A stretch of DNA of 63,741 bases, the filler included, from Chrysochromulina tobinii (lineage: Eukaryota): assembly GCA_001275005.1 (NCBI GenBank). It is 7 parts of 7 records of this genome, joined end to end, with 100 filler letters (N's around TTAATTAATTAA, not from the genome) between each part and the next. Parts side by side here need not be neighbours in the genome. Positions count along the whole stretch, not along the records: positions 1 to 13,939 come from JWZX01001419.1; 6 more parts are not named here. One strand, written 5' to 3'. A program made the translations under genes and the position numbers. Below, piece by piece: positions 1 through 49,726 of the stretch. Each line of letters opens with the position of its first letter. Position 1 is the first letter of the stretch. A model generated the notes under the pieces. That model had not been told where the DNA came from, searched no databases, and saw only the letters and a program-made list of their open reading frames with translations.

Positions 1-591
1 CCGGTGAAGCGCGCCTCGCTGGCAGACATCGTGCAGCAGAGCGGCGCCGAGAGTGATTCCGGCAGGTCGAAAACGCCCTCAGATGGGGTTCGCGCCTTGG
101 ATATGCAGAAGTCGTGGCGCGACAAGTTCAGGGGCCGCTCCAAGAAGAGCGAGCCCGGCACCTCGACCTGGAGCGACAAGTCGTACCGCGCGGGCAACAC
201 GTCGACCTGGAGCGACAAGTCGTACCGCGCGGGCAACGTAGAGACCTTCCAGTCCACGGTCCTCAACTCCACTGTCGTGCCAGGCGTGAGTACGCATGAT
301 GAAAGGTCCACTGAGACCTACACGCCTGACAAGAATGCGCCGGAAACGATGCCCAACACGGCCGGCAGCGGTGCGGGCAGCTCGAGTGGCGCTGGTAGCT
401 CTAGTGGTGCTGGTGTGCTCGGCGCCACCATCACGCCCGATTCGTTGTCCCGAACTTTAGGGAACACTTTTGGGAACACCTTTGGGAACGTCTTCGGAGC
501 CACGCTCCTCACCACCTTCACGCCCGGCTCGGCCGCCTCCACGGCCGACAAGACCAAAGGAGGCGATGTCGATGATGAGACCATGGTTTAG
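1..591 (+). CDS. 3' end of a hypothetical protein (low-complexity tail), start outside the window
   Basis: Frame is open from base 1 to TAG at 589-591, with GC-rich third positions and internal duplications (TSTWSDKSYRAGN x2, GSSSGA, GNTF). No recognisable domain. Confidence 0.5.
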   Translation, partial: PVKRASLADIVQQSGAESDSGRSKTPSDGVRALDMQKSWRDKFRGRSKKSEPGTSTWSDKSYRAGNTSTWSDKSYRAGNVETFQSTVLNSTVVPGVSTHDERSTETYTPDKNAPETMPNTAGSGAGSSSGAGSSSGAGVLGATITPDSLSRTLGNTFGNTFGNVFGATLLTTFTPGSAASTADKTKGGDVDDETMV

Positions 592-948
592 TTCCACGTA
601 ACCGAACGTCGGTGAAGTTCTGAGCTGGCACTTGAGTTCTGAGCTGGCATGTGCCAGCTCTGAGCATGTAACGAATCAGGGACCGCGCATATCATCGCAT
701 CGCATCTCCGAGGGGTTATGGCGTGTGCTACGCACGCTGACGGAGGCGATGTGGCACCGGCCGCATGCAAGGGACTCCCGGGGATGGCAGCCTGACTGAT
801 GAAAGCTCAGCAAAGTGCTCGCCTGGAGGCGACACAGGCTTGTTCATTGCACAACTGTGAACGGTATACTAGGGTGGTCGGGCGCGTGCCGAGGGAGGGG
901 ACACCCGCATGAACTGCCCCCGGGATTGCGAGGCAAGTTTGGAAGCGT

Positions 949-1024
949 CCGGATCCATACCATATGTACAGGCCGGAATCATACGCCGGAATCATACTAT
1001 GAAAGGCCGGATCCATACCATATG
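949..1024. repeat. Cluster of short direct repeats upstream of GH45
   Basis: CCGGATCCATACCATATG at 949 and 1007; GCCGGAATCATAC at 972 and 985. Confidence 0.7.
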
Positions 1025-1269
1025 AGGGCAACACAGGCGTGCAGTCCAGTACTACGGCGCCGTAGAGAGCCCCAACGTGAGTGGGTGCAGTGCAGGGTGC
1101 AGTGCGAGACTGGTCGGGTACAGTCGCAGTCGCGTGGTGTCGCCAAGCCCAAGGGTCGTTGTGTCGGTTCAGGAGGTGTGCATGTGCGGGGGAGGTTGCG
1201 TCCTGGGTAGGCGTTCGAACTTCTCGACTTTTTTTCCTTTTTTGCAAAGGCTCCCCACACAGGAACGCC

Positions 1270-3752
1270 ATGCCCAACAAGAAGAAGCCGACTGCGCCGA
1301 GTCGGTGTGCGGCTATCCTCGAGGATGACTCCGAACTCGACGACGACAAGGCGAACCTGGTCGACGACAGCGCTCCGGCGTACGCCGCGTTGCAACTCGG
1401 CAATACTCATGCTCACCGAGCGCCGGCGGCTGGCGTCACGCAGCTGCGACACAATATTGAGCTCGTCTCGTACCTTGTCCAAAGGCTTCCGCTTGGACTG
1501 CGTCTTGCAATCTTTGGTGGCCTCGGCTCGTTCCTGCTTATTTTCTTCGTCATTTTTGCAGCTGGTCTGCACCAGTTCCAGGCACAAGCACAGTCACCAC
1601 AGCCTCATCGGAGTTCATCTCACACGACTGTCCCCGATGTGTCCGCCGTCGCTCAGCAACGCCCGGCGAATGCGGCAAGCCACCCTCAACAGTATGCTCA
1701 TTCGCACGGACAAGCTCCCTCCGACGCCGCGCTCGTCTTGAACTCAGTCGAGTTCATCGAAATCGATGAGCCCTTCACGCCGCCGCCTCCACCTCCGCCG
1801 CCTCCGCCTCCGCCGCCGCTGCCCCCGCCCCCACAGCCAACCAACGACTTTCCCATAGTCGCCGGTGGCGTCGCCGGCTGGAGCGAGGGGCATACGACCC
1901 GGTACTGGGACTGCTGCAAGCCCACCTGCTCGTGGGCGAATAACGTACCGCTCGGAGCGACGCCATCGCGCTTCTGTGCGCGCGACGGTACCGAAGCCGT
2001 CAGCTCGGCCACTGATCGCCTCCGATGACCTCCGATGGCCTCTGATGGCCTCTGATGGCCTCTGAAGTGATGGCCTCCGATGGCCTCTGATGGCCTCTGA
2101 AGTGATGGCCTCTGATTGCAGGTGCCGAAGCCTTCAGCTCGGCCATGCCCTCCGCATGCCAACCCAATAAAAACGAGCTCGTCGGCGTGGCATGTGCTTA
2201 CACATGTGCGGCCGACGCGCCGTGGCGAGACGCGACCGATCCGTTGCTCTCGTACGGCTATGCTGCAGTGCCGGACAAGCGAGCATGTGGAGCCTGCTTC
2301 GAGTTCGAGTTCAGCGGCTCTGGCTACTACGACGCGACGCATGTGCAGCCCGGGCAGCCTGGGCAGCCGCCGCCCGATGAAACACGCGACGTCGGTTCGA
2401 TGCGCCTCCTAGGCAAGCGGATGATCGTCCAGGTGATGGCCTCTGATGACCTCTCTCATTAGGCAAGCTGATGATCGTCCAGGTGATGGCCTCTGATGAC
2501 CTCTCTCATTAGGCCAGCTGATGATCGTCCAGGTGATGGCCTCTGATGACCTCTCTCATGGACTCTCTCATGGACTCTCTAATGGCCTCTGATGGCTTCA
2601 GATGGTTGCTGGTGCCTATCTGATTGCGCCCCTCATCAGGCGTCCAATACGGGCTCGGACGTGCATGCAGGCCAATTCGACCTCTTGGTGCCTGCAGGCG
2701 AGTGGCAATTTCCCTTGATCTCCCTTGATGGCCTCTATGCATGCGGGCCTATTCGACCTCTTGGTGCCTGCAGGCGGCGTGGGCATCTACGACGCGTGCT
2801 CGGAGCAATGGAGCGTGCATGAGCGCCGCGTGCACCTCGGGGAGCAGTACGCTGAGTGCCTCGGACTGCCTCTGATGGCGTCGGTCTTGCCTCTGATTGC
2901 CTCTGATGGAGTTGGTCTGATTGGTCATCTGCCTCTAACTTCCTCTTACTGCCTCTGATTGCCTCTGATTGCATCTGATTGCATCTGATTGCATCTGATT
3001 GCCTTGATGGCCTCTGATTGCAGGTATGGCGGCATCTTGAGCACTTGCACTAATCAGCTTCGTCATCAGGACTCGCCGCCGCACCCCGCGTGCGCGCCCA
3101 GCAGCGCCGAGCATCGCTACGACAACGAGGCGTGCCATAACACGATCAAGGCGTGCGTCGCGAGCAAGTGTGTAGAACTCTTTGCTCCTTCACACCTCGC
3201 GCGGCTCCGTGAGGGCTGTGAATGGTTTGCGAACTGGTGCGACTCGATCCGAAGATGCGCCACTGATGACCTCTGATGACATCTGATGACCTCTGCTGAC
3301 AATGACATCTGAGGCCCTCTGATGACCATCTGATGACCTCTGATAACATTTGATGACCTCTGATGACCTCTGATGACATCTGATGACCTCTGATGACATC
3401 TGATGGTCTCTAGTGGGCCTCTGATGGCCTCATCTGATGACCTCCGAGTGCCTCTGATGCAGGGCTCTGATGGCCTCTGATGGCCTCTTTTGTACCTCTG
3501 ATGTACCTCTGATGTCCTCTGAAGCTCTGATGTCCTCTGATTGGCCCTGATTGACCCTGATTGACCCTGATTACGACCTAATTGGTCCATCCTTGCAGGT
3601 TCGAGGCGGCTAACGATCCAAAGATGCGCTGGCGGCGCGTACACTGCCCTGTGGGGATCTTCGCGGGCGGCATCCAAGGGGATGGCACGACACCGGCAGC
3701 GGCCCTGCTAGGCACCGCATCGACGATCATTGGTGCGAACACTGGGCGGTGA
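1270..3752 (+). CDS. GH45 endoglucanase, type II membrane-anchored; 6 exons: 1270-1987, 2122-2432, 2640-2697, 2774-2846, 3024-3236, 3599-3752
   Basis: GH45 signature TTRYWDCCKPTCSW; spliced frame continues ACGACFEFEF...GKRMIVQ|ASNTGSD...QFDLLVPA|GGVG...GEQ|YGG...GCEWFANW|FEAANDPKMRWRRVHCP. N-terminal TM helix and poly-Pro linker. Four GT-AG introns and one GC-AG intron (2698-2773) keep the frame. Confidence 0.9.
2012..3590 (+). repeat. Degenerate ~10-bp satellite (G/A)CCTCTGAT(G/T)G filling GH45 introns
   Basis: Arrays at about 2012-2118, 2433-2625, 2866-3020 and 3263-3575. Confidence 0.95.
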
Positions 3753-4513
3753 TCTGAGTCCGGAAAACCCCCGGATCTGAGACTTCGTGGAGAGTATTAG
3801 TAGAGTGCGCTTCATTTTATCTCTAATCATCGATTCCCGCATCCCGTAGTGTGTAGAAATGTGTGCGAAAATCATTAGAGTCCGCCGCTGCGCGTACGCT
3901 GCGCGCTGGCCCGCTGTTCCGCTCGCGTCGGCGCGCTCCTGCCGTGCGCTGCTCGAAGTCTATGCCGTCGAAGAACGAAGAGGGCAAGAGCCGTGGAAGT
4001 TGACTCTTGACAAGTTTTAGAGGACTGTCCACAAAAAGTGAGCTGAAGCTGTAGCGGAAACAATGACCACGAGACGAGATCCTGCTCCTGGATGGTATGA
4101 TGTATAACGGAAGCTTGACGTTTCAAGTGTTCCCTCTGGACCTAAACCAATCGTCTGGACATTTTTGTCCCACCATCACCGAACCCTGCCCGTACCGAAC
4201 CGTGTAAGTATGCTGTTCTATCCTACGGAGAACTGTAGACCGCTGTTGTCGCTGTATACACTGGTATACACACCCCGTTCTGGAGGCGGAACACACTCAG
4301 TCGTAAAATCAGGGTAAGCGGTACCAAGTCGTGGTCCCTGTGCTGCTGGAGCCGCGTCGCGCTTGCGCCTTGACGTACCGCCTACACCCAGAGAGATCTT
4401 CATGGACCCAGAGTGGCAAGACGGGCAGAAACAGGCTGACACCTGATTCACCCTCATCTCGTAAATCGCCGCGACGCCATGCTCTGCCTGACCCCCGGTA
4501 CACCCATGCCTCC

Positions 4514-7500
4514 CTATTCCTCTCCGAATGCCTCGCCTCGGCTGATTGGGCCGAGCTCGTCGGCAAACTTGGCGCACAGACCCTTCCACGCGCCGAGGCT
4601 GAGCCCAAACAGATGGCAGTGCGTCACTGCCTCCACGTACCTCTCAGACAGCACGGGCGCTTGCGGCCCATTGAAGGCGAGCATCTCGACGCCCACGGCA
4701 CCGTGACGGCCGACGATGAAGCCACGGCTGACGGGTTGCAGCTTCTCAAGTGCCGCATCGGATGATGAGATGGTGTCTACCTTGCCATCGCTCTGGTCGG
4801 CCGCGCCATCCGCCACAGCCACTATAAGGGCGTCGTGAGCGTCCTTGATGAGCATGACGGACCGCCGCCGCTGATTCGGAGTCGCAGGCGGTGACTTGGA
4901 CGGATCCGTCTCGCTGTACCGGGAGTGTTTGGGCGGCTCGCGCCCGCGGTGGACCCGGAGCTTGCCCACATCGACCAGGTAGAGCTGGACGGCGGGTGCG
5001 CCCTTGGTGATGACGGTGTCACTCTCGAGGAAGAGTTCGGGTTGGAGTACGAGGCAGATCTCAACGAGGGGGAAGAAGGTGAGGTTTCCGAGCGCGGGCA
5101 CATTGAGCAGGTGGTCACGATGCATCCATAGACCGAGGTCGCGGAGTAAAAAGGGCGGGAGCTCCTGGAGGAGATGCGCGTGCGAGATGCGTGGGTTGGA
5201 CGAGAGCACCCGGTAGTACGAGGCGATGCGCTTGGCCAGCATGTGCGGCAGCGGGTGATGCCTCATGTAGTGCTGCAGGTAGTCGGTCTGTGTCTGGAGC
5301 AGTTCCTCCTGGACGTCGCCCAGGCGCGCATACGATGAGATGAGACCGATGAGGTATGCGAACATCGAGGCCGCCACGAGCGCGAGCACTATGCAGAAGC
5401 CGGTCTCCCACGCGTTCTGCGGCCGCACGTCGCCAGACCCGATGCTCGCCATGTGGAAGAGAACAAAGTGGGCAGCGCGAAGGTACGACGTCCAAATGGT
5501 CACATGCGCCCAGTCCGCACGCTTCCAGGCGATGTCCTCGGTCATCCAATTGCGCCCGAGGGCGGAGAGGGGGAGCGTGTACGCATCGAAGAGGAACCAG
5601 CAGGCGAAAACGTGCGCGACGTAGATCCAGAAGCTCCAGGCACTCAAGAGGCGCGCCTGAGCCTTCGAGAGCCGAAGTTGAGGAGGCAGCCAGCCAAAGG
5701 CCACGCGGAAGTGCTCGAGGCAGCGCGAGCAGCGCAGCAAGCGCGGTAGGCGCAGCAGTGCGACGGCGAGCAGGATCGTCTTCGTATCACTCGTCGTCGC
5801 AAACCCGATCGGCGCCAAGGCTTCATATGGCAGTGTGGCGAGCACGTCCAGGCGCAGCTTAGCCTGGACATAGTGCGTGCGGATTGCCGCGTACGTGAGC
5901 TCGGACTTCATGAACCCATCGCGCCCGCGAGGGAGGAAGGGGAAGCAGTTGGCACGCAGCACCGAGTCGCACAGCAGGATCGCGTCGCAGGTCCATTGCG
6001 TCGCGAGCGCGGCCCACGCGCTGTCGACGCTCACCGGGCTACGCGGCCCGAAGGCGGCGATGATGAAGGGGATCGAGATCGCGAGATAGAAGGAGATCGC
6101 TGTCATCAACAGTTCCCACAGCTGCCGCGGCAGCGTCGAGGGTGGATAGACGTGATGGTAAGTCGCCGGATGCCGAACAGGGAGGACCGCATCGGTGGCG
6201 GGGGGGGGCACTTGCTCCTTGCTCGCCCGCCGCGACGACGGGCGCGAGGCGGGCGCCTCAACTGTTGGCGCCCACGACGGCGCCTCGACTGCTGGCGGCC
6301 GAGCAGAGGGCTCCGCTGCCGTCTGAGCGATGAGCTCCGCTGACGACTGTGGGATGAGCTCGACCCCAACGGTGCTTACCATTTTAGGCAACTCGACCCC
6401 AGCAGCGCTGACCGTCGGCGCTGAGCTCTCGACGTCCTCGGCACTGACACTCACGACTTGCGATAAGGGCGCCGAGCTGGGCGACCGCGGCCGACGCTCA
6501 AGACGACGCTTCCGGATGGCGAGACGGCCCGAGATTTGGACGGGCAAGATGAGGCGGGGCGCCGTGTCGCGGGCCTCGTCTAATTGCCCTCGTGATTGCC
6601 CTCCGAATTGCCCTGATTGCCCTGATGGCCCCGGCATGGCCTCGTCCGGAACGGCTTCCCGCACGATGCGTTCGTTGATAAATCGCTGGTTCGCACCCAT
6701 GGTGCGCACGAGCGACTCGAGCTTGGCAAGATACGCCGCGTCGTGATGCAGCCCGAAGAGCGCGCACGCCGCGTCGAGCTGCCGGCGCGTCAGTTGGATG
6801 ACGTGCGCCCGCGTCACCGCGCGCACCGAGGCATTGCGCGCGGTGCCTTGGAGAAAGAAGGAAACTTCCCCGAGCACCGCGCCGCTGCTTACGGTGGCGA
6901 CCACCTGCGACTTGGTGTGCTCGATCTGCTGCTTGGTGAAGCTCATCCTCTCGCCAAGGAGGTCTTCGGCTTTCTTGAGGCGCTGGACAGGCGTCGAGCG
7001 CACCTTGAGGCGGCCGCCGGTCGTGACGATCTCGAAGATGCCCTCGACGACGACGTACATGTCATACGTGCCTGTGTCGCCCTCGATCATCAGTAGCTCA
7101 CCCGGCGTGATGACGAGATCGCTCATCTCCTTGGTGATGTACCCGAGGACGGCCCGCGGCAAAAGGTCAGCAAGCTTCGTCTTGAGAAGCAACTCAAGGC
7201 GGATCGCCTTCGACGTCTCGAGCTGGAGCTGCGGCGGCAGCTTGCTCAACACGGCGTGATTCTTGCCGACGCCTCGGTAACCCGACCAGATGAGGTAGCG
7301 GACGACGCGATCCTGGAGCGCCGGCGGGACGGCATGGCTCGCCTGGACACGTTAAGGGCGCTTATGGCGTTGAGGTTAAATAGGGGGGGTAATTAGCAGT
7401 GCAAGTAGGAGGGCAAATAGGGCAGTTTAGGCAATCAGAGATGCCCGGGATGGCTCACCATGACCTTCTTCGTGTTGGCTAGCACGCACTCTTCCTCATG

Positions 7501-10500
7501 CTCCTCGTTGCCAATCAACGAGATCACGCTGACAACCGTGCCCTGGACTGCAGATACCACGGTCGCCATAACGACGATCATGAAGACCATGGTGTACGTC
7601 TCATGCATCGTGGTGGGCGCGACGTCACCGATGACGACGAACAGGAACGTGCCAAATGCAATGTAGAAACCGCGCAACCATGCAAGCACCGCAAGCGGCT
7701 GGCATGTGGCCGCGCCCTCGATGACGACGGGGTCGGTCGCCCACCTGTGGGGAGGGGATAGGGGGGCGCCGTGATGAGCACTTGCATGCTGGGCTGCACA
7801 CAGTGGGGTCAGTCGCCCACCACGAGTACGCAGACCACGTGTGTTCGCTCGTGTTGGACACGAAGGTCGCCTGGAAGTCTCGCAAGCCGATGATCGCCCA
7901 GGCGCAGCCTGCAAGGTGCGAGGTCACGAAGATGGCGAGCAGCATTCGGCCGAGGCGCACGTGCTGAATGTCGGTGGACGGCGAGCGCTCGAGCAGCCAC
8001 GCCTCTAGGCTGTACAGGTGACGTGGCAAAAGGACGAGCAGCGGCAGCCGTACGGCCCAGACGATGCTCGCCGTCTGCGCCGCCGCGTCCGACACCGCGT
8101 CGCCGCCGCTGCGCACGCCGGCCACCGCGATGGAGAGGATGTCGAGGATGAGCACAGCGGCGAGGAAGAGCGACGCAAAGGGCAGTACGTTGCGTGCCGT
8201 GAGACGCGCCGTCGTGGGCTCATCGATCGCCCCCTCGGTGCCGGCCGCGCGTGCGCGCACAGTGCGTAGCTGCACCACGAGCAAGTCGACGCCGATGGCC
8301 ACGTCGGCGAGGAAGTCGAAGACGCAGAGGCCGACCGAGTCGAAGTACTGCTGTGCGCTGGGCGCACTAGGGTCACAACTCTTCACGCCCCACGGGCTGT
8401 GAACTGTGGGAACGCCGTTGGGCTGGGGGAATAACGGCCAAGGCTGGTAGCCCCAGGCCTCGTTGGCCTCAAGGCGGTCGCGGTACAAGGCAGGCGTCAG
8501 TTGGAGCGCTTCCGACCATTCGATCGGCAGAGCAAAGTTCTCGTGCAGGCTCGCCCGTAACGTGTCGCCGCACAGCCGATAGAGGAGCAGTATGAACAGC
8601 AGAAGCGACCAGGCGTGCGACGAGCCGAGCCTCTTGGTAGCGGCGTCGAGGATCCGGTGGCACTGGTGCAGTCGCGCCGCCATGACCTTGTCTTGGCCGA
8701 GGATCTCGACAGCCGTGATGGACGCGGCGTCCTCAGTGACGCCTGCGAGGACGCCCGTGCCTAAGACGTCTTCTTCGCCCTGCGTAGAAGACGTCTTGTT
8801 CTTGGGCGAAGTGGTGAGCTTGTGCATGACCGCCTGGTCGCGCTGGGAGTTCGCATGGATCGCCTGCTGGGCATTCGCCTTGAGCGTCGGACCAAATTCA
8901 GCGAAGCGGCTCAGGAGCTCGTTGAAGGGCTTGCGGCGCAGTCGCAGGCACTCACACATCTGGACGGCGATGATGTCGTACCGATGTGTGACGCCCAACA
9001 AGAACTCGTCCGCGCCGATGCTGCCGCCCTCGTAGATCGTCTCTAGCAGGATTGTATTCGCGAGCGCATCCGCCATCACATCGGGCGTCGCTTTTCGCGG
9101 GTTGGACGGGTTGCTCATCGCCCTGCGAAGGAAGGTCATTCCCGTGGAGCGTGGATCTCGAACGTGTTTGATGCTCGGGGCACTGGAGCTGATGCTTGGT
9201 GAGCGTGTGGAGCTCGCCCGACCGGTCACCTCACTACTCTCACTACCCTCATCGCTGGACGCATCGGACATTCGGTCCATCTCATCCTCGGTGGGTTTTG
9301 CGCCCGTGCGCAAGGCGATCTTACCACGCCAAGGATTCGTGCCGAGTGCTGTGCCGAGAGCACCTGGCCGTGGGGGGAGGGGCGTAAGGGTGCCACCGGG
9401 CGAGTAGGGGCAGCGGTCGCCGAAGAGCTCGATCTCTTTCTCGATCTCGATCTCTTTGTCGAGCGAGGATCGAGCCGTCGGGGGCATTGGGGTGAAGGAG
9501 AGGGGGAGAGCGAACTGGTCCATCCTTGCTTCGACAGTAGAGCTGCGAGGTGATGTGTCGAGCTTCACCGATGCAAGAGAGAGATCTACCAGATAGCTAG
9601 TGGCTGGCCGTTCCGGCTGCCCTTCCGGTTCAGTGGCTGGGGGTCCGTGCGGCTCGGCCGAACTGGCACGCTGCTTCCTGTGCTGCGCCGACTGCGATGC
9701 GGCAGCGGCGTCCCCTGTGCCTGCGCTGTGGACGAGCTTGATCCGACGATGCGCCTCACCTCGCTTGAGAATGATGATGCCGGTCGTCACGTCGCCGGTC
9801 TGCGCGATGAATGAGTTTGGGACGACGAGCTCGACGTGCAGCAGCGCACACACCTCGAGCAGAAACGCCTCCGTACATTCGCGGAAGCACGAGACCGAGC
9901 GGACCTGATGAGGGAGGCCATCAAGGAGGTACTCAGTGGTATTCAGAGCAACCAGAGGTCATCCATGGCAATCAATGGTACTCAGAGGCAATCAGTCGTG
10001 CTCAGAGGCTCATCACGGCCATCACCACCGCCATCATCACAAGACCGCCATCATCACAAGACCGCCATCATCACGGCCATCATCACAAGACCGCCATCAC
10101 CACAGGCCCGAGCGAGCATACCATGCCAAGGTAACGATGCAATCATTCGCAATCATTCGCAGTCGAAAGCAATCAGTGAGCGCGGACCATGCCAAGGTAC
10201 AGATGCGCCGAGATGAGCACGTGCAGCGAAGGCGGGAGCGAATGAAGCAGCTTCGTCTCCGTGCGAACGCGCTCGCCGAGCTCGGCCAGCAAGATGATCT
10301 GCGAGCGCAGCGGTCCGGCGAGGCGATTACGGTGCACAAAGTCGTGTACGGCCGTTGCCTGCACGGTGCGTGCGGTCATCGCATCCATGAGGAGCGACAT
10401 GATCGCGGCGATGATCGCCGGGTAGAGCATACTGCCTGGAGCCTCTAGGATCAACATGGCCCAAGTCTCGGGGATCGTTCTGGGCACGATGTCGCCAAAG

Positions 10501-13500
10501 CCAATGGGACTCATCGCGACGGTCATCCAGTAGACCGAGCGCACGTACGCGTGGAAGGGGCTCATCTCGTCATCGGGAGATGCAATCTCGTCATCTCGTA
10601 TGAGCTCGCGCAGGTACACCGCGTCCCATGTGAGCCACGAGCCGCCCGTCCCGAAGTCGGACGCGCCAGCGAATGCATTGTCGCTCCGGACGAGGCCAAG
10701 CCACAGAAAGAGGCACCCGCTCCAGTGTAACCAAATGAGCCAGAAGAGGATCAGGTAGATCATGCGACGGATATGTAAGGACGGTGAGAGTGAGGGACGT
10801 TTCTGATGAATGTGGAAAAAGATCTCGCCAATCCAACTGCTAGTGCAGCGGAGGCGCACCAGCCGCGGCAGCATGAGGAACGGCGTTCCCGAAGGCGAAG
10901 GGTTCCACACGTAGCCTCCCCACTCCCATGGCAGGCAACACAGGACGTCGACGGCGATCCCAAGCCAGGCAAACCTGGAGCGGTCGCTCCGTCTCGATTC
11001 CTCGCGCTGGAGCTTCCCTGGGGGCATGAGCCAGTTGAGCTCGAGCGCGGCGACACACGCGGGGTTGTGCTGGCTCCACAGCTGCAGCCAAAGGACGACA
11101 TACGTCACTACGTCGGCGACCAGCCACCATGGGTTGAGGCCGGCGCGTCCCTCAAATGCGCAGCGGAGAGGGAGCACGAGGGCGAGGTAGCCGGCGGTGA
11201 GCAAGCGCAGCGTGAGCCAAAGGAATGGCAGCGTCTCTCCGCGCGACGCCCGGCTGTCCACTGCCGGCGCCTGGCTCATGATCCCCTTCGACGCCTGCAC
11301 GCCCATGACGGCGCGTTCTGCCGAGCGGCCGACGAAGAATCCGGTTGCAGACTGAGCCGACTGCTCGACGGCATGCTCACCGCCGTGATTGGTCGCCGCG
11401 CCACCGGCCATGACGCTGTCCACAGAGTGCCCAAGCTTAGCATGCATGTCAATCTCTGTCGACGGCGCGGGCTCCGTAGGAGGGGGCTCCGACTCGGGCG
11501 GTGTGGAGGGGGGGGAGGGAGGTGGCTCGCTGATGCCACCCACATCGCTGCCGGCACCCACAGACCACTGAACGAGCCGGGGTGCCGGCTCACTTGCCCG
11601 GAGCGGTGCTGCGTCAGGCATTGTGGGTGATAAGAAGGGCGATTGCGAGGAGGCAGCAGCTTCGCGCGCCGCAAGCAGCTGCACCACGTCGTTGCAGTGC
11701 AAGGCATGTACCTCCACGAAAGTCGCCGCTCGAAAGTCGGTGCGCGCTTGAACCACGCGCGTCGCAGCGGAAGGTAGGATGCAGTCACCCTCGTCGTATG
11801 CGCGGATCTGGCGGAGGCGATTGGCCGCGCGCTTTCGCCAGCGAGCGCTTAACGAATTCTCGGACAACACGCTGCGCTTCTGCGAACCCTCGGCCAAGGG
11901 GGAACCAGCGGCGCCACTCGAATTCTCCCTGACGGAGGCGTCTTCACATTCTTCCATCATTCCAAACTCAAGGACCATCCCTCGGACGAGCAGCCACGCG
12001 GTCGAGCACGTCTGCGGGACGATCGTGAGGGTGCCATCATCGGCGACGGACGAGCACTTGAGCAGATGCTCGTCCGTCGTGTAGATCACGGGGTAGAGCA
12101 GCCCGGCGAGGGCCGCGATCGTGTCCGCGTCCAAGCTGGCAAACGAGGGGATCGAGCGGAGCAGCTTGTGATTGAGTGCGAAGCGTACCTCGGAGCGGAG
12201 GGATGCAGGCAGCCCCGCAAAGAAGGTGCTCTCGTCGGCTCCTCTCAGGAAGAGCCATTGGTACTGCAGGTACTCCTGGATGCGCCTCGCGAGCTCCGGG
12301 GGGATCTTGTGTCTCTTGATGAAGGCGTCGGCACGCTCAACGCGCGCGAGCCACGTCTCCTTGAGCATGTTTGAGCCCTTGAGAGCCGGAATCAGTAGGC
12401 CGATCGAAGTACAGGCCGCAACCGTTGCCACAATTGAGGTGCAGACGTAGAAGATCAACTCTTCCAGCTTGGTGGGCACTATGTCACCGAAGCCGACGGT
12501 CGTAATCGTATTGGTTGCCCAGTGCAGCGCTCGCGCATAGTAGATCCAGGGATCTAACGGCCACCGAGACTCGAGCGCGAGCAAGTGAGACTAGGGAGAC
12601 TCAATCTGGGGAGACTCGATCTGGGGAGACTCGATCTGGGGAGACTCGATCTGGGGAGACTTGAGCGCGAGCACGCGAGTTGAGCAGCCAAGCACTCGGG
12701 CGCTGCGGCGGGCGCGGTGTCGTGCGTCAGCCATCCGGCGGCGGCGCACCCGACGGAGGCGGAGCGCGCTCAGCATCCCGACTTCTACACGTTTGAGGCA
12801 CCCACGAGCTGCCTAAAGCGACAAAGTCGACGTCCTGCCAGCCCGGCTCGTCGTCGACCCAGGTCCCCACCGCCTGCCATCCGCACGCAAACAGATGCAA
12901 CAGCAGGATGTACATGGGGAAGTAGGAAGTGATTCGAGCCCAGCCAACGGTGAAGCCCGCCTTGAAGCGCAGAAACCAGTAGGTCCCGCCAACCGGATTG
13001 CCTCGGGTGTTGGCGAGGCGCAGCAGGCGCAGAAGCGAGACATTCGTCCAGGTGCGCAGCGATGCATTGCTGAGCAGAAAGACCAGGTCGATCGGCATCC
13101 ACGCCAGTAGCCGGCGAAGGATCTCGAGGATGGCGATGCAGAGGCGGAAGGAGCGCCAGAACGGGGTGCCCTCCCCCTCGCCGCTAGCCTCCTCCTCTGC
13201 CTGCCTGACCGCTCCGATCGTCCGGTGCTCGACGAGCTCGGTCGGCGGAAGAAGCTGCCCCTGGGAGCGGGCGGCGCGGCGTCGAACATGCTCGCGCACC
13301 AGCGGCGTGATGCGGAGTGCGAGGAAAGCGACGTCCACGAGGTAGAGAGAGACGCAGTAGTTAGCAAGCTCTGGATACTGCAACGCCGGCCGGTCTGCGT
13401 ACTCGCCCCAGGTGGTCGACGTGAAACATGCGCGGAAGGGGAGCAGAAAGCCGTGCAAGATGCCGAAGACGCCGCTGCCCAAGTCGAACAAGGATTCTCT

Positions 13501-13848
13501 CCAGTTGCTCGCTGCTTCATTCTGAGCTTTGAGCTCCTCCAGTTGAGATGAATCATGTGAGACGTCCAGCACCGCGTGGGCCACTGAACGCCGGCGACCG
13601 CCCGGCTTCTGGCGAGCTACGGCTGGCGACTGCCAAGCACAAGCATCGGCCATGAGCGGCGGGCGCTTTTCCGGGGAAGGCGATTTTTCGGCGCTGGGCT
13701 GAGCGTGACGGCGCCAGTGGCGAAGCGTGACGGCGCACAGGCGAAGCGTGACGGCGCACTGGTGTAGCGCTTCGTTCGTCGTCACGATGTCACTGAACCT
13801 TCCCAAGTCAGAGGAGCTCGTCATTGAAGATGCCGAGCTTCGCTCCAT
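4514..13848 (-). CDS. Four-repeat cyclic-nucleotide-gated/EAG-like cation channel (CNGK-like architecture), ~2,880 aa; exons approx. 13848-12802, 12590-10188, 9904-7821, 7744-7459, 7342-4514
   Basis: Four S4 segments (LLRLLRL, LPRLVRLR, VRLPLL, LLRLPRLLR), four pore loops (TTVGFGD, SPIGFGD, FVVIGD, ASIGSGD), each followed by a C-linker (LP.xL..E/D) and a CNBD. Proposed exons sum to 8649 nt, in frame. Intron 1 boundaries and the start (13848 vs 13935) are uncertain. Confidence 0.85.
12594..12661. repeat. 15-bp tandem repeat GGGAGACTCGATCTG x~4.5 in channel intron 1
   Basis: Directly visible; flanked by a duplicated GAGACT(C/T)GAGCGCGAGCA segment. Confidence 0.9.
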
Positions 13849-13939
13849 ACTTGCGAAGATCGCAAAGCGATCAGCTGGCGGCCGCGCGGTGAGTGGCCGA
13901 TACAACAAGCATGACACGGCGCGGCTTCGCTTCATCCGC

Positions 13940-14039
13940 NNNNNNNNNNNNNNNNNNNNNNNNNNNNNNNNNNNNNNNNNNNNTTAATTAATTAANNNNN
14001 NNNNNNNNNNNNNNNNNNNNNNNNNNNNNNNNNNNNNNN
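13940..14039. other. Artificial contig linker
   Basis: 44 N + TTAATTAATTAA (stops in six frames) + 44 N. Confidence 0.99.
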
Positions 14040-25684: not shown

Positions 25685-25784
25685 NNNNNNNNNNNNNNNN
25701 NNNNNNNNNNNNNNNNNNNNNNNNNNNNTTAATTAATTAANNNNNNNNNNNNNNNNNNNNNNNNNNNNNNNNNNNNNNNNNNNN
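25685..25784. other. Artificial contig linker
   Basis: N44-TTAATTAATTAA-N44. Confidence 0.99.
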
Positions 25785-32214: not shown

Positions 32215-34188
32215 TCAACCGTCATGCCCTCGCGTGCACCGCCAAAGTGGGCTTACCGCCAAGCGCTTCGCCTCCAACCTTTCTGCCGCAGCTCTGACGC
32301 TCCAGCCCCTCCAAAGCTCCTCCTCCAATGCCTCTGACGCCGCCTTCTCGGCCTCCACCGCGGCCTCCTCAGCCTCCACCGCGGCTTCCTCGGCCTCCAC
32401 CGCGGCTTCCTCGGCCTCCACCTCGGCCGCGGCCGCGGCCCTCTCAGCCACAGCGACATCGACCGCCGCGGCCGCCGCGGCCTCTGCGGCCTCTGCGGCC
32501 TCCGCAGCCGCCTCAGCAGCGACCCTCTCGGCTGCTGCTGCCTCAGCAACAGCCTCAGCTGCCTCGACCGCCTCGGCTGCCTCGGCCACTGCGGCCGCCG
32601 CGGCCGCCGCAACCGCCGCAACCGCCTCGGCAGCGACCTTTTCGGCGGCCGCTGCCTCAGCAACAGCCTCAGCCGCCGTGGCAGCCTCCGCTGCTGCTGC
32701 TGCCTCTCTCGCCGCTTGCTCGCCCTCCACTTGTTTGGCCACCAGTCTCTCCACCTCGGCCGTCGATGCCGCCTCAGCAGCCGCCGCTGCCTCGGCCGCT
32801 GCGACCGCCCAAGTAGCCACCGCCGCCTCGGCTGACGTCGTGGCCGTCGCCTCTGCCACCTCTGCCGCCTCTGCTGCGGCTTCGACCGCCGCCTCTGTCG
32901 CCGCCTCCAGCGCGACGCGTGCATCAGAGAGCTCTCCTCGCTCGACACGGCGCTCCTTGTCGAAGGCCGTAGGCTGCGGTGTGAACAAAACGGCCGCCGC
33001 CGGTGCCTCGGCTTGCCCCTGATTGCCTCCATCTGATTGCCTCTGATTGCCTCTGATTGTCTCTGACGTGGTGGAGGCCGCCGCCGGTGCCTCGGCTACC
33101 TCTGCCTCCGCCACGTCGGCCGTCTGGTTGCCTCTGATTGCCTCCGCCACGTCGGCGACCGCCTTTGCAGCAGCCTCGGCCGCCGCAGCCTCGGCCGCCG
33201 CAGCCTCGGCCGCCGCAGCCTCGGCCGTTGCTATGGCTATCACCGCCCCCTCCGCAAACTCTCTCTCGAAAGAAGCCGACTTGTCTTCGGTCTGCGCCTG
33301 CACGAACGTCTCCTCGGTCGCGTTGCCCCGAGCAATCAACGCCGCTACGACCGCCAACCCGCCACCTCGCGCGAGCAGCGCCACCTCTTCCTCTCTGTTG
33401 GCCCTGGCAGCCGCCGCCTCCGCAACCGCCTTGGCCGCTGCTTCCTTCGCGGCGGCTTTGGCCTTTGCATCTGCGGCTGCCGCCTGGGCCGCTGCCCGAA
33501 CCTCCGCTTCGCGCCGGCGCCGTGGCGCCGCCCTTTTCCCTCCGATCGTGACCGCATTCTCCGCACCAGCGCTCGACGCATCGCTTGACGACCGGACCAG
33601 TGCCGGAATCCCTACGAGCGCGCCTGTCGCGCTCAGTCCCACGATCCCAAAGGCCAACGCGCGCCGGTCCGGCGACGCGATATTGTCAGCGTTTGACGAC
33701 GCAACCTTCGAGTTCGCATCGGATGCTGGCCCACCAAAAAGTGCCTGGAGGGAGAAGGATGGCGGTGGCGGTGGCGGCGGCGGCAGCTTGGGCGGCGGCA
33801 GTGCAAACAGAGACATGAGGTCTAAAGGCTTGGGTGCGGGCGGTGGCGGCGGCGGCAGCTTGGGCGGCGGCAGTGCAAACAGAGACATGAGGTCAAACTG
33901 TTTGGGTGCGGGCGGGGGCGGCGGTGGCTTGGTCCGACCAGAGAAGAAGGATGAGAGGTCGAATGCGAGCCCATCGGAGACGCCTTCATCACTCTCTCCG
34001 AGCCCATCGGAGACGTCTTCATCACTCTCTCCAGCGACTACTGCTCGTTTGAGATGTTCTTTACTGTCTCCAGCAGCGAGAGCCTCGTACTCCGTCATGC
34101 AAGGGTTGGAACGCGCACCTAAGCGGATAACTTTATGAGACACGAGTAGCAGGCTACTGTGGGCCAGAGTCAACAAGAACGCGACCAT
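32215..34188 (-). CDS. Ala/Glu-rich low-complexity protein with signal-like N-terminus, Pro repeats and hydrophobic segments
   Basis: 657-aa ORF with ~72-bp coding duplications and a long EAAA helical region. Confidence 0.6.
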   Translation of the reverse strand: MVAFLLTLAHSSLLLVSHKVIRLGARSNPCMTEYEALAAGDSKEHLKRAVVAGESDEDVSDGLGESDEGVSDGLAFDLSSFFSGRTKPPPPPPAPKQFDLMSLFALPPPKLPPPPPPAPKPLDLMSLFALPPPKLPPPPPPPPSFSLQALFGGPASDANSKVASSNADNIASPDRRALAFGIVGLSATGALVGIPALVRSSSDASSAGAENAVTIGGKRAAPRRRREAEVRAAAQAAAADAKAKAAAKEAAAKAVAEAAAARANREEEVALLARGGGLAVVAALIARGNATEETFVQAQTEDKSASFEREFAEGAVIAIATAEAAAAEAAAAEAAAAEAAAKAVADVAEAIRGNQTADVAEAEVAEAPAAASTTSETIRGNQRQSDGGNQGQAEAPAAAVLFTPQPTAFDKERRVERGELSDARVALEAATEAAVEAAAEAAEVAEATATTSAEAAVATWAVAAAEAAAAAEAASTAEVERLVAKQVEGEQAAREAAAAAEAATAAEAVAEAAAAEKVAAEAVAAVAAAAAAAVAEAAEAVEAAEAVAEAAAAERVAAEAAAEAAEAAEAAAAAAVDVAVAERAAAAAEVEAEEAAVEAEEAAVEAEEAAVEAEKAASEALEEELWRGWSVRAAAERLEAKRLAVSPLWRCTRGHDG

Positions 34189-34493
34189 TGTTTGGGATCG
34201 AGATTATTGACGAATTTGGAAAGATAATTGACTCATCAAGTCGTGCTAATACCAAATTCGGTCAGCAGTAGACCGAGTCGCGGCGGGTAAGTGAGTCACA
34301 CGGAAATCACCCGCGAAGCGCACTGCGGCCGTGTGTCACACCTTCCAAGCCGAGAAATGAGTGGCCGCTCACTGTGTCGCCATTCGCTTTACGCTTATAC
34401 AAAGTCCAAGCCCATTCAGTACGCCCCCTCGACCCGCGCCATCTTTCAGCCTGCCGCCCTCAGCGCTTGACCTTACCCTCATTTTGACCCTTG

Positions 34494-35972: not shown

Positions 35973-36072
35973 NNNNNNNNNNNNNNNNNNNNNNNNNNNN
36001 NNNNNNNNNNNNNNNNTTAATTAATTAANNNNNNNNNNNNNNNNNNNNNNNNNNNNNNNNNNNNNNNNNNNN
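35973..36072. other. Artificial contig linker
   Basis: N44-TTAATTAATTAA-N44. Confidence 0.99.
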
Positions 36073-39000: not shown

Positions 39001-40465
39001 GGACATGCCGGAAGAAGCTTTCCTGGAGCCCCAGGACGCCGCGGCCCTCTTCAGGCGGCCGCGGCGCGGCGTTCGTGGCGCTCGTGTCCTCAGCTACTGC
39101 TGGCGCATGCCTGGCATGCCCGACCCCGACGGCTGCACGCTTGAAAAGATCCGCGGCTACATGAACCTGGAGAGGGGCAGACAAGGCGGCGAGTACGGTC
39201 TTTTTGTGGACGTTGCTTGCCTGCCGCAGAACTATGCGTTGCCGTCGTGGCACGCCATGGAGGCGATCACGAAGCGCTTCGGCACCGAGGCGGACATTGG
39301 CCCACTCACCGTGCTCAAGTTTGAATTGGAGCACGTCGCCACGGAGGAAGAGGCGCAGGTTTGCGTCGACAAGGTCGTCTCCCTATGCGAGCAACAGCGC
39401 TGGGAGCTGGCCCCCCTGGCGGACTTTGAGAGCCTCGGCCTGAGCTCGCGCGGCCACGTCAGTGTGCTCGTCCAAGAGCGTTACATCATGGGCGTGAGCC
39501 GCTTCGACAAGGGAGCCTCTCCCGAAGGCTACGTGCGCTTCCGCACGCCTCACGACGCGAACGCGGCACGGCACCATCCAGACTTCATGTTCGGCGGCAA
39601 GGAGCCAGAGCTGATGGGCGAGCACGTCTTCGAGAATGAGCTCAAGTTCAAGCGCGGCCTCTCCGTCATGGGCTGCCTCTACGCGTCCGCCACAGGTACC
39701 TGTGTGCTGCAGCTCAAGGCACCGCCAGGCGAGCTCAATGGTGACGACGTCGCGCCGAGCGAGCTCGTCTCCGAGCGCATGGGGACCGTCTTCGTCGTGT
39801 CGCTCAGAGACAAGTCGCTCGATGAGCCAGCACGCCGTCGCTGGCTCGAGGAGCTGCACGAGGAGCTGGGTGACGGCGTAATGGCCTGCGAGAAGGGGCC
39901 CTGGGGTGAGGTAGTGGTGCGTGTTTATGGCGAGACGGCGGCACGCGCCGTGCGCACGCTGAACGAGGGCGGCTACCCGCTTCGTCGCAAGGATCGCGTG
40001 GTGTACCCAGTGTACAACTTGCGGCCGTACGGCTCGCGCGGGTGGCCGACCTTTGAGACGTCCGCTGCCTCGATTGTGCTCGCGCACCACACGCAGCGAA
40101 CGCCTCCCGTCGCGCAGGCGGAGGAGAGCGGTCCAAAGCTCATCAACATCGACCTGATCGACGCCCCACGTGTGGTGGAGGTCGTGCAGTCACCGGAGCG
40201 CCACCTCCTGCAGTGCAAGAAGAAACTGCTCTCGAAGCAAATCTTTTTCACCGGGAAAGGCGACCAGAAGGATGTCGTCCAGCTGCTCTTTGATTTTGAG
40301 GACTCAGTCTCGGTAGAGGTTGATCAGAGGCGCGCCAGACACTCGAAGTTCTCAACAGAGGACCTCGAGCACGAGCATGCCGCGAGGCAGGAGTATGCCG
40401 AGAGGCTGGGCGATGCGCGCAGGACGCGATCCCGCAAGCTGCTGCAGCGCCTCACCTTCCTCTAG
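36073..40465 (+). CDS. LRR receptor-like multipass membrane protein with cytoplasmic UIM and HET/TIR-like domain (5'-truncated)
   Basis: LRRNT cap (LYEATGGDTW...NW...C..WFGVHC), plant-type LRRs (LQHLDLSGNALFGALP), 8-9 hydrophobic helices, UIM EEFDLALALSASLAE, HET-like motifs VLSYCW/HPDP-like PDPDG, FVDVACLPQ, MGCLYA, YGSRGWPTFE. Confidence 0.8.
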
Positions 40466-40626
40466 GAGCCGATTCCTCACCTTCCTCTAGGAGCCGATGC
40501 CTTGCCTACCTCTAGGAGCCGATGCCTTGCCTTCCTCTAGGAGCCGATGCCTTGCCTTCCTCTAGGAGCCGATGCCTTGCCTTCCTCTAGGAGCCGATGC
40601 CTTGCCTACCTCTAGGAGCCGATGCC
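40451..40626. repeat. 25-bp tandem repeat x7 seeded on the stop codon of the LRR-HET gene
   Basis: CTTGCCTTCCTCTAGGAGCCGATGC units; the first copy contains the TAG stop. Confidence 0.95.
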
Positions 40627-44128: not shown

Positions 44129-44229
44129 CGAGGCGGAGACGATAGAGATGAGGTTCCGTGCGCCTCGAATCGGGTTCGTCATTCCGTCGCACAGTTTCAC
44201 AGAAGAAAACTGAAAACTCCTCGACGCCG

Positions 44230-44653
44230 CGTTCGTCGCAATTGAGAGCGGGTTGAGCGTCAGAGCGAGCAGCAGCAGCAACGTCTTCAATCGGGTGGCG
44301 CCATGGATTGCGCCTTGATACTCTTTGAAGACGAACAGCCCGTACAGCATGCCAGTGACGCCAGCGGCACAGCCGAAGCCGAAGGCGACCGGGCTCGAGA
44401 TCCCCGCGTGCAGCTCGGCAAAGTAGCACAGGTAGCCCACTGCGATGCACACGCCCGCGCTACTAGTCCAGACCACCTGACGCCGAGTGAGCCCGAGCCC
44501 TGATGTTGGTGATGAGGCTTGAGCGGGATGCAATATGAATATCAGAGGCCATCAGAGGCAATCAGCGAACCATCTGACGCCGAGTGAGCCCGCGGACTTG
44601 GGCGCCGTGTCGAGCGAGTTCGGTCTCCTCTTGGAAGAGACACCCATACGCCT
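44230..44653 (-). pseudogene. Fragment of a DMT/TMEM144-like membrane transporter with one intron (44477-44570)
   Basis: AG...VGYLCYF...PVAFGFG...GMLYGLFVFKEYQG resembles the DMT C-terminus. No upstream part or own stop is evident. Confidence 0.45.
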
Positions 44654-47069: not shown

Positions 47070-49726
47070 TCACTTCTTCCCAAAGTTCTTCCCAAAGCTG
47101 ATCACGTCCTGCTCCGCTGGGTGCTCCGCCTTCGGCAGCTTGGCAGCGCCCTTGCCCCCGAACGTGCCCGCTGCCTTCTTTGTGGTGACCGTAGGCGCCC
47201 GCGACTGCGCGGGCGTCGTGCTGGTCGACGGCACCGTCACCGTCGCAGGCGGAGGAGGCTTGAGCTTCGGAGTGACGCACCGTGTGGGGGCAGCCTTGGT
47301 GGCGCTCGACACGGCGCTCGTGCTCCCGCTGCTGCTGCCGCCGCCGCTTGCCGCCGCCGGCTTCGTCACAGCCGGCTTCGTCACAGCCGTCACAGCCGGC
47401 TTCGTCACAGCCGCCGGCTTCGTCACAGCCGGCTTCGTCACAGCCGTCACAGCCGGCTTCGTCACAGCCAACGCTGCCATACCGCCCGCCGCGGCGCCCT
47501 TGTCCGGCACAGCAGTAGCACCGCATCTCTCCTTTGACCTCACCTCCAGAGGACGCTCACGACTGGACTCGCCTCCAGCCGTCAAAGGTTTAGTCAAAGG
47601 AAGTTCCTCATCTTCGCTCACGCTGTCCATCTGAGCCTCCCTCATTAGGGAGGACGCCAGCTTGCAAGTACGGCCAGCTGTGCCTCGAGCCGCCTTGAGG
47701 GACTTCCCCACAGCCGCCTTGAGAGACTTCCCCACAGCCCGTCCCCCCACGACCCCAACGGCTCCCCCCCCCATCGAGGAGCCACGTGGCTTTGGCGCCC
47801 TTCGCGCCAAACTGAGCGCTTCGAGCCGCTCCTCCAAACGCGTCGTCTTGAGCGCTCGAAAGTAGCCGCGGCATGCATGCGCGCAGCCGAGGAAGACCAT
47901 CAACACGAAGCCGATCGCGAGCATCAGTGGCCCCGTGTCCGTCGGCTGGGCACGCCCGGGACGACGGCCCCCCAACACCGGTGCGCTGGCGTTGGCGGCG
48001 GCGGCGCATGCTGGGCAGATGCTGAGGACGTCGGTGGAAGAGAGCGAGGCGAGCGCTGCAAGCTTGCTGGCCTCTGCTGAGCCTTCGAGCGGCAGCGACC
48101 AGTTCTTACTCACCTGTGATCCGGGGGGGCAATCAGAGGTCATCAGAGGTCACTCACCTGTGATCCGGGGGGGCAACAAGACGACAGCCGAAGGGCCTTC
48201 AGAGGCCATCAGAGGCCATTAGAGGTCATTTGCGAATCTGCTGTCATCAGCGGCACGCACAAGTCCGCCAGTATCATCGCTATCTGGGTTGAGTGCGAAG
48301 TAGAAGATGCCAAAGCCGCGCTGCTTGAGGTACGGGATCGCCCAGTCTTGCCACTGACGATCCTGATCGGTGTATCTCCCCCCGATCTCCCCGAGCACGA
48401 TTGGTCTGTGGGTGAGCTGCTGCGCGAACGCAAAGTGCGCCTCCCACACCTGATGAGGGACGCCATCAGGGTGAGCTGCTGCGCGAACGCAAAGTACGCC
48501 GCCCACACCTGATGAGGGTCGCTATCAGGGGAGAGGGAACTCAGCGGCCATCGGTGCGCCACCCTGACCTCGGGCATATTGGCGGGAAAGCGCTGGTCAT
48601 CAAAGTAATGCTGCTGGTACACTGACGGGCCGTACACATGGGGCGAGTAGACGAGCTTCTCCTGGTTGGACAGGTGCACCTGTGACAGGGGTGAGTGGGG
48701 GTGAGTGGGGGTCCAGGCTCATCACCTGCTGAAGCCGCGTGCAGCGTCTAAAGGGAGTAGAGGATGGCAGCGCGTCTAAGTAAGGCGAATTAGAGGCGCA
48801 TTATAGAGGCTCATTCGAGGCTCATTAGAAGCTCATTAGAGGCTCATTCAAGAGGCGCATCACCTGCTGCACACGCGCTCCGATGAGGTTCTCGCCCCAC
48901 CAGATGCCCGCTCCTGGGTCGTCGCCATTAGGTGCGCCCGGGTTATATCCGACCCCCTCGACAAAGATCAACCATCGAGGGCATTCACGCAGGACGTGGT
49001 CGCCGAGGTCCTCCGCACCCAAATTCCAATCGATCGCCAACCCTTTGGCCCACGACGCGCCGTGCGGCTCGTTGGTGATGCTGCGTACGCGCGGCGCAAG
49101 CGCGCCCAGGACAGCACGCCAGACCACGTGGGCTCAGCGCGAGAAAGCAAGTGGGGAGTGGCCTCGAGGGCTCTGAGGGCGCTCGAGATTCGTTCGAGAT
49201 GGCGGCTCGCGCACTCGGCGGCGATCACGTTCCACTCGCCACAGAGGACGGCCGCGAGCTTGCTCCAAGACGTCTTGACACGCGACACGGGCCAGCCGAT
49301 GTCGTCGTCGTACCAGAGCCCTTTGCCAGGCCACGCGTCATGCCTCAGCCGGTGCGCGGCCACCATGACAAGCATGCCGCGCTTGGCGGCCTCGCGGCAA
49401 AGGATGGTGAACATCTCGAGGTAGCGCGTCTGGAAGAATAACGGGTCCTCCGACTCGGCGGTGTGCACGATATCGTCCTTCTCGATGAACTCGTGCGCAA
49501 ACAGCAGCCGGATCGCGTTGAACTTGTGCCGCTGCAGGAAGTCGAGGTAGAAGCCGACCGGGTGCCTGTCGAGGCCTCCGGGCGGACCGCAATACGTTTC
49601 GCTGCCGAACCAATTGATGCCCTTGATGTGGAAGGCGTTGTCGCCGCTGACGGAGGCGTACAGCGTGCCGTCGCGGCCGCTGAGCTCGAAGAGGTCAGTG
49701 GCGCTGCGGCTCGCGCCAATGCCCAT
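47070..49726 (-). CDS. GH5 endoglucanase/cellulase with C-terminal TM and basic repeat tail; exons 49726-49215, 49080-48864, 48679-48569, 48449-48261, 48113-47070
   Basis: IKGINWFGSET, FNAIRL, AAD|ITNEPHG (acid/base E), VEGV, WWGENL, VYSPHVYGPSV, LGEIGG (nucleophile E), NPDSDDTGGL|VSKNW; GT-AG introns keep the frame. Confidence 0.9.

Follow-up and report, generated by a model that had tools for sequence, protein, structure and literature searches.

Tandem arrays of the unit GCCTCTGAT(G/T) in the haptophyte Chrysochromulina tobinii are, with a probability that we put at roughly 0.6, the slippage-prone core of dispersed GT/GC-AG introns bordered by host-exon duplications of 15-46 bases, and the last CTGAT motif, positioned 12-42 bases before the acceptor, is the likely branch point of these introns. 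The family has members in many unrelated genes, both in the haptophyte and in its lake relatives. Its arrays are not free-standing additions but the variable central part of a larger element, whose 5' and 3' modules are conserved.

Satellite-bearing introns in the window

In the whole stretch of DNA that was analysed (the window; 63,741 nt, with a G+C content of 62.6%), CCTCTGAT occurs 38 times where 2.04 occurrences are expected, a number reached in none of 100 shuffles, and 26 of the 38 copies lie within 2039-3541, without exception on the + strand. Tandem Repeats Finder reports arrays with a period of 10 at 2007-2100, 2852-3021 and 3263-3571 (30.5 copies in the last of these), as well as a threefold repeat of 50 bases at 2410-2559 with two units in each copy. 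The earlier note had described 2012-3590 as one satellite; the repeat is real, but what lies there is not a single array: the repeats belong to five separate introns of a GH45 gene (1988-3598, + strand), which are filled by GCCTCTGAT(G/T) arrays. The tail of the frame 1081-2025 matches the Pfam family GH45, and the profile is colinear across intron 1, exon 1 matching profile positions 2-32 at its end and exon 2 matching positions 52-101. Excision of the five segments given below yields a single continuous frame that ends in a stop codon. The GH45 introns possess a GT or GC donor and an AG acceptor and restore the frame upon removal, as U2-type introns do.

1988..2121, + strand: GH45 intron 1, 134 nt, GT-AG; period-10 array at 2007-2116; ends in CTCTGATTGCAG
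2433..2639, + strand: GH45 intron 2, 207 nt, GT-AG; the 3' module TGATTGCGCCCCTCATCAG at 2621-2639 forms its end
2698..2773, + strand: GH45 intron 3, 76 nt, GC-AG; element-borne donor GCGAGT, then CTTGAT units
2847..3023, + strand: GH45 intron 4, 177 nt; donor GTACGCTGAG; period-10 array at 2852-3021
3237..3598, + strand: GH45 intron 5, 362 nt; array of about 30 units at 3263-3571

Intron 1 contains a 25-nt copy of the start of the downstream exon (2 mismatches), followed by the array; the additional 50-nt copies in intron 2 consist of the exon end, the donor and two units; and in intron 3 a diverged copy of about 37 nt of the upstream exon end provides the acceptor. The consensus of the unit is free of AG, as the earlier note had it, but the real introns contain some: 20 non-terminal AG dinucleotides are found in the five GH45 introns, against about 56 expected at the frequency of 5.9% across the window. 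An RNA-library contig (X13; 2819-2969) runs unspliced through the border between exon 4 and intron 4. Folding of the intron 5 RNA gives a z-score of -5.0 against shuffles, and since the structure is a ladder of helices of 1-2 pairs, as is typical of tandem repeats, we draw no inference from it.

A lake-metagenome contig (L035) is orthologous to 2536-3883, with almost identical exons. The 76-base intron 3 is missing from it exactly, with the duplicated junction present just once. The 50-base repeat of intron 2 likewise occurs there in one copy only, the array of intron 4 is shorter by one unit, and intron 5 differs by an 11-base deletion and by several indels of unit scale. The differences between the window and this relative consist of slippage and of either a recent gain or a precise loss of intron 3. 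With their head-to-tail units and a copy number that changes between relatives, the arrays resemble slippage-driven minisatellites, and the unit-sized indels bear out the growth by slippage that had been among the earlier proposals; the absence of intron 3 from a near-identical relative is consistent with the further proposal that an insertion would be spliceable at once. The telomerase-like activity, also among those proposals, finds no support in the data. The presence or absence of an intron between close relatives, a property of introners, comes from this sole orthologous pair; the scanned loci described below, among which overlaps within one contig and some near-identical pairs were all that turned up, gave no further such case.

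Further arrays of the window lie in minus-strand genes, namely those for a cyclic-nucleotide-binding ion channel and a DEAD-box helicase and a putative GH5 gene, the earlier label of which has a Pfam match, but a weak one (E 0.019) that is under the cut-off.

7343..7458, - strand: channel-gene intron, 116 nt; diverged junction duplication of about 13 nt (GTGAGCCATCCCG / GCGAGCCATGCCG)
9905..10187, - strand: channel-gene intron, 283 nt, GT-AG; the 6-nt GTCCGC is common to both ends
44480..44600, - strand: short array of three units, sense; with a copy of GGGCTCACTCGGCGTCAG on either side; upstream of the DEAD-box helicase frame
48114..48260, - strand: arrays in the putative GH5 gene, sense; duplicated GCCCCCCCGGATCACAG|GTGAGT junction
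48450..48527, - strand: two 3' modules (TGATGGCGTCCCTCATCAG, TGATAGCGACCCTCATCAG), each ahead of a copy of a duplicated exon segment of about 40 nt
48680..48863, - strand: CTAAT-variant array (GCCTCTAATGA units) in the putative GH5 gene, sense; CAGCAG|GTGATG duplicated within it

All window arrays listed at the outset are sense to the flanking coding strand according to a codon model, but antisense copies at 6580-6630 and 32992-33160 had been missed. The segments 7343-7458 and 44477-44570, named earlier as array-bearing introns, are likewise sense; the former, however, has a single intact CTCTGATTGCC unit among decayed ones, and the latter has neither an exact canonical excision solution nor a supporting RNA contig. 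The intron 9905-10187, which contains degenerate units and the 3' module TGATGGCCTCCCTCATCAG, is spliced in RNA contigs of run X14, with loose ends at 9905 and 10182. Among the satellite introns it is the only one for which removal from RNA is seen in the RNA contigs over 1-13900 and 36073-53641; these include no spliced contig for the GH45, helicase or GH5 introns. RNA joints between arrays (e.g. 2065 to 3313, 44565 to 48128) were rejected as splicing, since their short sides and extra letters identify them as cross-matches between repeats. At 7745-7820 lies an intron of 76 bases that has a duplicated junction (16 bases) and no satellite, which speaks against a strict need for the motif. The window also encodes a seryl-tRNA synthetase fused to a Dpy-30 motif, whose nearest named proteins come from Emiliania huxleyi (66%) and Prymnesium (65%).

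Architecture and splicing signals of the dispersed family

Metagenome contigs were scanned for three consecutive units, which gave 132 loci with 136 arrays, or 108 non-redundant arrays after merging by shared flank words. The DNA runs that contain the stretch studied here are labelled as mixed-culture metagenomes, and small shares of it occur in freshwater and marine metatranscriptomes. Successive units in the scanned loci are spaced by exactly 10 in 614 of 654 steps. The layout of a copy is a duplicated exon piece, an optional donor module (GTGAGTCTCGTCAATTGCC or GTACGCTGATG), a variable number of units, and an optional acceptor module (GCCTCCCTCATCAG). In some copies the donor module follows immediately past an exon CAG. 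The motif CATCAG is present no more than 45 nt downstream of the array in 35 of 94 arrays, versus 2 of 94 for a control window placed 300 nt further along; GT or GC follows it directly in 34 of the 35, and in 24 it stands at one constant spacing, ...CTGAT(K)GCCTCCCTCATCAG|, which places the CTGAT adenine at -17. Four such acceptor modules are found in the window, every one of them sense. Similar introns with shared 3' and 5' modules in many unrelated genes (108 arrays from 132 loci) are a property of introners.

The link of arrays to duplicated junctions, drawn before from the window, extends to the scanned loci: the best direct repeat across the array scores at least 12 in 47 of 84 arrays, as opposed to 16 of 84 mismatched controls. 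A non-satellite direct repeat scoring at least 13 was detected in 43 of the 84, while 41 possess no clear flanking duplication. For 28 of the 43 duplication-bearing arrays (23 with GT and 5 with GC donors), an exact GT/GC..AG excision leaves one copy of the duplication, a figure that is not clean, because the reverse-orientation control (CT..AC/GC) can also be solved in 13 of the 43. In these 28 introns, whose median length is 108, the duplication measures 15-46 nt (median 23.5) and contributes a splice site, as the target duplication of introners does. It provides the donor in 18 introns, where the duplicate starts with GT or GC and the element brings the acceptor, and the acceptor in 10, where the element brings the donor and the duplicated exon end gives the AG. 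Such duplications are not fixed and short as in introners derived from DNA transposons, and there are no clear terminal inverted repeats; the only inverted match, CTGATGA...TCATCAG, comprises 7 nt and lies between the unit and the acceptor module. No link to a transposase and no reverse transcriptase, poly-A tail or other mark of a retroelement was seen. Pure tandem duplication of exon sequence was rejected as the source of these introns, given that the non-exon satellite and the modules sit between both copies.

The adenine of the last YTRAY motif is found 12-42 bases before the acceptor in all 28 duplication-defined introns, and exactly at -17 in 13 of them. GH45 intron 5 contains 28 YTRAY motifs, the last with its adenine at -18. 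The final CTGAT of introns 1 and 4 has its adenine at -7, which is probably too near the acceptor for use; the preceding adenines are at -32 and -17, respectively. That the arrays supply branch points, as the earlier note proposed, fits this placement (-12 to -42, with a mode at -17), and judged from sequence the repeated CTGAT likely acts as a splicing branch point, its actual use remaining our inference. The organism does not depend on the YTRAY motif: the same gene cluster holds an intron, supported by RNA, at 12554-12749 (- strand) that has a different, AG-containing repeat of 15 nt and no YTRAY in its last 42 nt. A search of the window against Rfam families, including the hoped-for U2 snRNA, gave no matches. 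The claims of AG poverty and of TGA stops in every sense frame hold beyond the window: the 28 introns contain 46 AG against 511 CT in 3237 bases, and an open frame exists on the sense strand in none of the 108 arrays and on the antisense strand in 106.

These properties suggest how a newly inserted copy might fare. An element, or a copy of an existing intron, would be pasted in at a staggered break or by template switching, the latter possibly from another intron at AG|GT microhomology. Sense copies could then be spliced out immediately, since a CURAY-like motif, a pyrimidine-rich tract poor in AG, and stops in every frame all come with the unit. The branch point would lie in the last unit or units, the AG-poor tract would guard the choice of acceptor, and the in-frame stops would flag unspliced RNA.

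A rival account, possible in our view and yet rather doubtful, regards the arrays as neutral filler: functionless products of slippage in which only the terminal modules or the last unit matter, with a polarity that simply follows the spliceable orientation. Unit number indeed varies between near-identical relatives whose exons are unchanged, internal units have decayed (e.g. in 7343-7458), and the fixed acceptor module already holds one CTGAT at -17. Furthermore, CTGAT is only slightly, and weakly, better kept than the rest of the unit, with mismatches in the window introns at 43 of 365 CTGAT positions and at 40 of 219 remaining positions; this comparison was confined to the window introns, and the per-position tally of the scanned loci was discarded, because the arrays there were delimited by YTGAT and the tally was biased accordingly. 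Functionless filler does not sit well, however, with the ten introns with a duplicated acceptor that have no acceptor module and in which array units are the sole YTRAY motifs within -17 to -42, nor with the fourfold AG deficit and the lack of an open sense frame, both of which extend throughout the arrays and beyond the last unit.

Orientation, antisense copies and the mode of insertion

The strand of the flanking coding sequence was called with a codon model trained on 14 Pfam-backed frames of the window; this caller was correct in 35 of 37 held-out chunks of 600 nt and in 74 of 81 chunks of 300 bases. Among the 108 non-redundant arrays, 71 are sense and 5 antisense to the flanking coding strand, and 32 were left uncalled because their flanks are short or weak. 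The earlier note had claimed that arrays within genes are sense and had proposed to count their orientation; run on the metagenome arrays, the count is strongly skewed (71 versus 5 among the 76 called) and upholds the claim. It is also conservative, because array sequence left over in the flanks would push a call towards antisense. Coding flanks on opposite strands were found for 1 of 38 arrays, versus 70 of 400 random positions in the window, 60% of which already lie between same-strand coding flanks, for which reason we do not firmly claim a depletion of arrays between genes. The genome is gene-dense.

Copies in the opposite orientation are informative about the origin of this polarity. Two sets are found in the window:

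6580..6630, + strand: relative of the unit with a 9-nt period (CCCTGATTG), antisense in the open minus-strand channel frame, where it is read as (A-I-R)n
32992..33160, + strand: two clusters of units, bracketed by exact direct repeats of 22 nt (spacing 84) and 18 nt (spacing 36), respectively

Both clusters at 32992-33160, with spacings divisible by 3, lie within a minus-strand frame of 662 codons and likely represent in-frame insertions in antisense orientation, the strand of this Ala-rich frame (32218-34203) being weakly called. At the scanned loci, four of the five arrays called antisense are inside frames of the other strand; frames of 638 and 686 codons cross the arrays of loci L023 and L050, which are read as ...IRGHQRSSE.... 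The fifth (L071) is likely an error of the caller, because it possesses the standard duplication and the acceptor module. Each of the four antisense inserts with flanking repeats shows a spacing divisible by three: 78 in L050 (counted by hand from the printed sequence), 69 in L119, and 84 and 36 in the window.

We infer that antisense copies persist only as in-frame coding inserts. Such copies would offer AG-rich look-alikes of acceptors and no stops, and this would restrict their survival to in-frame insertion into coding sequence. Their presence in reading frames, together with flanking repeats of their own, indicates that insertion proceeds at least sometimes in both orientations, and selection likely sorts the outcome; since the antisense copies exist as in-frame coding inserts, selection appears to us the better explanation of the polarity.

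An orientation-specific mode of insertion, by RNA-based or transcription-coupled copying such as retroposition or reverse splicing, would alternatively have elements enter in sense from the start, and nearly all arrays being within genes, together with the strong skew itself (71 sense, 5 antisense), would accord with it. The long target duplications point in the same direction: their variable length (15-46 nt) is more typical of target-primed insertion than of cut-and-paste transposition. We nonetheless consider this route unlikely, as antisense copies with flanking duplications of their own are present in reading frames, neither a reverse transcriptase nor a poly-A tail nor any further sign of a retroelement was seen, and reverse splicing would give no duplication. 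That the repeated UCUGAU is instead a platform to which a splicing enhancer, a silencer or some other RNA-binding factor is recruited, with no pairing to U2, is very improbable in view of the constant spacing of -17 to the acceptor, which is what a branch site is expected to show, even though the motif is repeated, strand-specific and transcribed, with arrays bordered by many different flanks in the RNA-library contigs of four metatranscriptomes.

We tentatively put forward a bolder possibility. The haptophyte may be gaining introns at present by means of a satellite cassette (branch point, pyrimidine tract and acceptor) that is pasted in with a long copy of the target, perhaps by template switching that requires no transposase; sense insertions would be born spliceable, and antisense insertions would turn into new coding sequence of the IRGHQRSSE-like type. 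If this is true, one repeat feeds intron gain and protein innovation alike.

Relation to known systems of intron gain

The origin of new spliceosomal introns, and the reason why they are spliced from the outset, is an old open question. Here, the splice signals stem partly from the duplicated host exon and partly from a repeat that combines stops and an AG-poor tract with a motif resembling a branch site. One intron that differs between near-identical natural relatives renders intron birth, the redundancy of branch sites and the fate of antisense copies testable, both in a culturable alga and in lake populations. The loci analysed here contribute the satellite, its polarity, the two classes of splice-site origin, the antisense coding copies and the polymorphic intron.

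In the introns of Trichomonas and Giardia, a fixed motif extends from the branch site to the acceptor. The family studied here resembles these in its conserved 3' cassette with a presumed branch adenine at a set distance from the AG; in contrast to them, its cassette is preceded by a tandem array of its own motif and is part of an inserted element. In Daphnia, introns have reportedly been gained at repaired staggered breaks with short direct repeats, a finding attributed to Li et al. in 2009. An intron of the potato RdRp gene was reportedly gained by tandem duplication of an exon piece containing AGGT (PMC4974935). As in both cases, direct repeats of exon sequence bracket the new intron and the duplicate creates a splice site; unlike them, the filler is neither unique nor a pure duplication, and identical filler (satellite and conserved modules) recurs at more than 100 loci.

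Among haptophytes, the genome paper on E. huxleyi (Read et al., dated 2013) is said to mention short tandem repeats in introns. The E. huxleyi introns are high in repeats (bioRxiv 10.1101/283549), and GC-AG introns are prevalent in this alga (PMC4028052). Introns rich in repeats and GC donors (in 5 of the 28 introns) are features that the present haptophyte has in common with it. Full-text searches turned up no haptophyte study that describes the unit or a satellite restricted to the sense direction of introns, with the proviso that Read et al. may describe related repeats; in the term-searched text of the C. tobin genome paper (PMC4580454), the word intron occurs once, and intron repeats are absent.

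Introner elements have reportedly been described in Micromonas and Aureococcus (work credited to Huff, Zilberman and Roy in 2016), and a survey by Gozashti et al. in 2022 is said to have covered introners across many eukaryotes; they are also known in dinoflagellates. The satellite-bearing introns differ from introners, whose duplication is short and of fixed length, in having long duplications of variable size (15-46 nt); where introners have a unique sequence as their body, that of the present family consists of a 10-nt satellite whose copy number varies, and either end of the element may be missing, with no clear terminal inverted repeats and no transposase link seen. They share with introners the multi-copy family of similar introns in unrelated genes, the target duplication with one splice site taken from the element and the other from the duplication, and the differences in presence or absence between close relatives. 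Among the known kinds, the satellite-cored intron family is, by this comparison, closest to the algal introner elements.

Repeated donors and antisense copies in reading frames

Satellite units of the approximately 10-nt, CTGAT-bearing repeat are found both beside splice donors and, in antisense, within open frames:

2410-2559, plus strand: 50-nt unit in three copies (GH45 gene, exon 2/intron 2), in each of which the end of exon 2 and a GT donor are combined with two satellite units
6580-6630, plus strand: 9-nt-period relative of the satellite unit, antisense within the open frame of the ion channel gene (4517-7351, minus strand)
32992-33160, plus strand: two clusters of satellite units, each bracketed by exact direct repeats, with spacings of 84 and 36 nt

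Since every 50-nt copy possesses its own GT donor, three equivalent donors stand in series in the GH45 gene; the orthologous lake relative (L035) carries a single copy of this unit. In the channel frame, the 9-nt-period repeat is translated as (Ala-Ile-Arg)n between the cNMP-binding and ion-transport domains. The clusters at 32992-33160 lie within a long Ala/Glu-rich frame on the opposite strand (32218-34203, minus strand), a gene whose strand call is weak; this frame matched no Pfam family. Antisense arrays at two metagenome contig loci (L023 and L050) are traversed by open frames of 638 and 686 codons, respectively, yielding peptides of the type ...IRGHQRSSE...; the satellite is apparently also a source of coding sequence.

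Introns lacking the satellite or filled with another repeat

7745-7820, minus strand: 76-nt GT-AG intron candidate whose flanks carry a duplicated junction of 16 nt (GTGGGCGACYGACCCC)
12554-12749, minus strand: 196-nt GT-AG intron, with support from an RNA contig joint (run X14)

The CTGAT satellite is absent from the 76-nt candidate. Its body is matched by RNA contigs from several runs that then continue into unrelated sequence. This pattern suggests that the candidate, too, is a dispersed intron module. The 196-nt intron is packed with a distinct 15-nt tandem repeat (GGGAGACTCGATCTG on the plus strand) that includes AG, and no branch-point-like YTRAY motif is present within its final 42 nt.

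Other features of the window

N-run pairs: 13940-14039, 25685-25784, 35973-36072, 53642-53741, 58143-58242, 60880-60979
50268-52121, minus strand: seryl-tRNA synthetase with a C-terminal Dpy-30 motif

Each of the six N sites consists of two 44-base runs separated by 12 bases; these pairs look like masked stretches rather than assembly gaps of natural size. The combination of seryl-tRNA synthetase and Dpy-30 is an architecture also seen in the protein of E. huxleyi and in several unnamed proteins from metagenomes.
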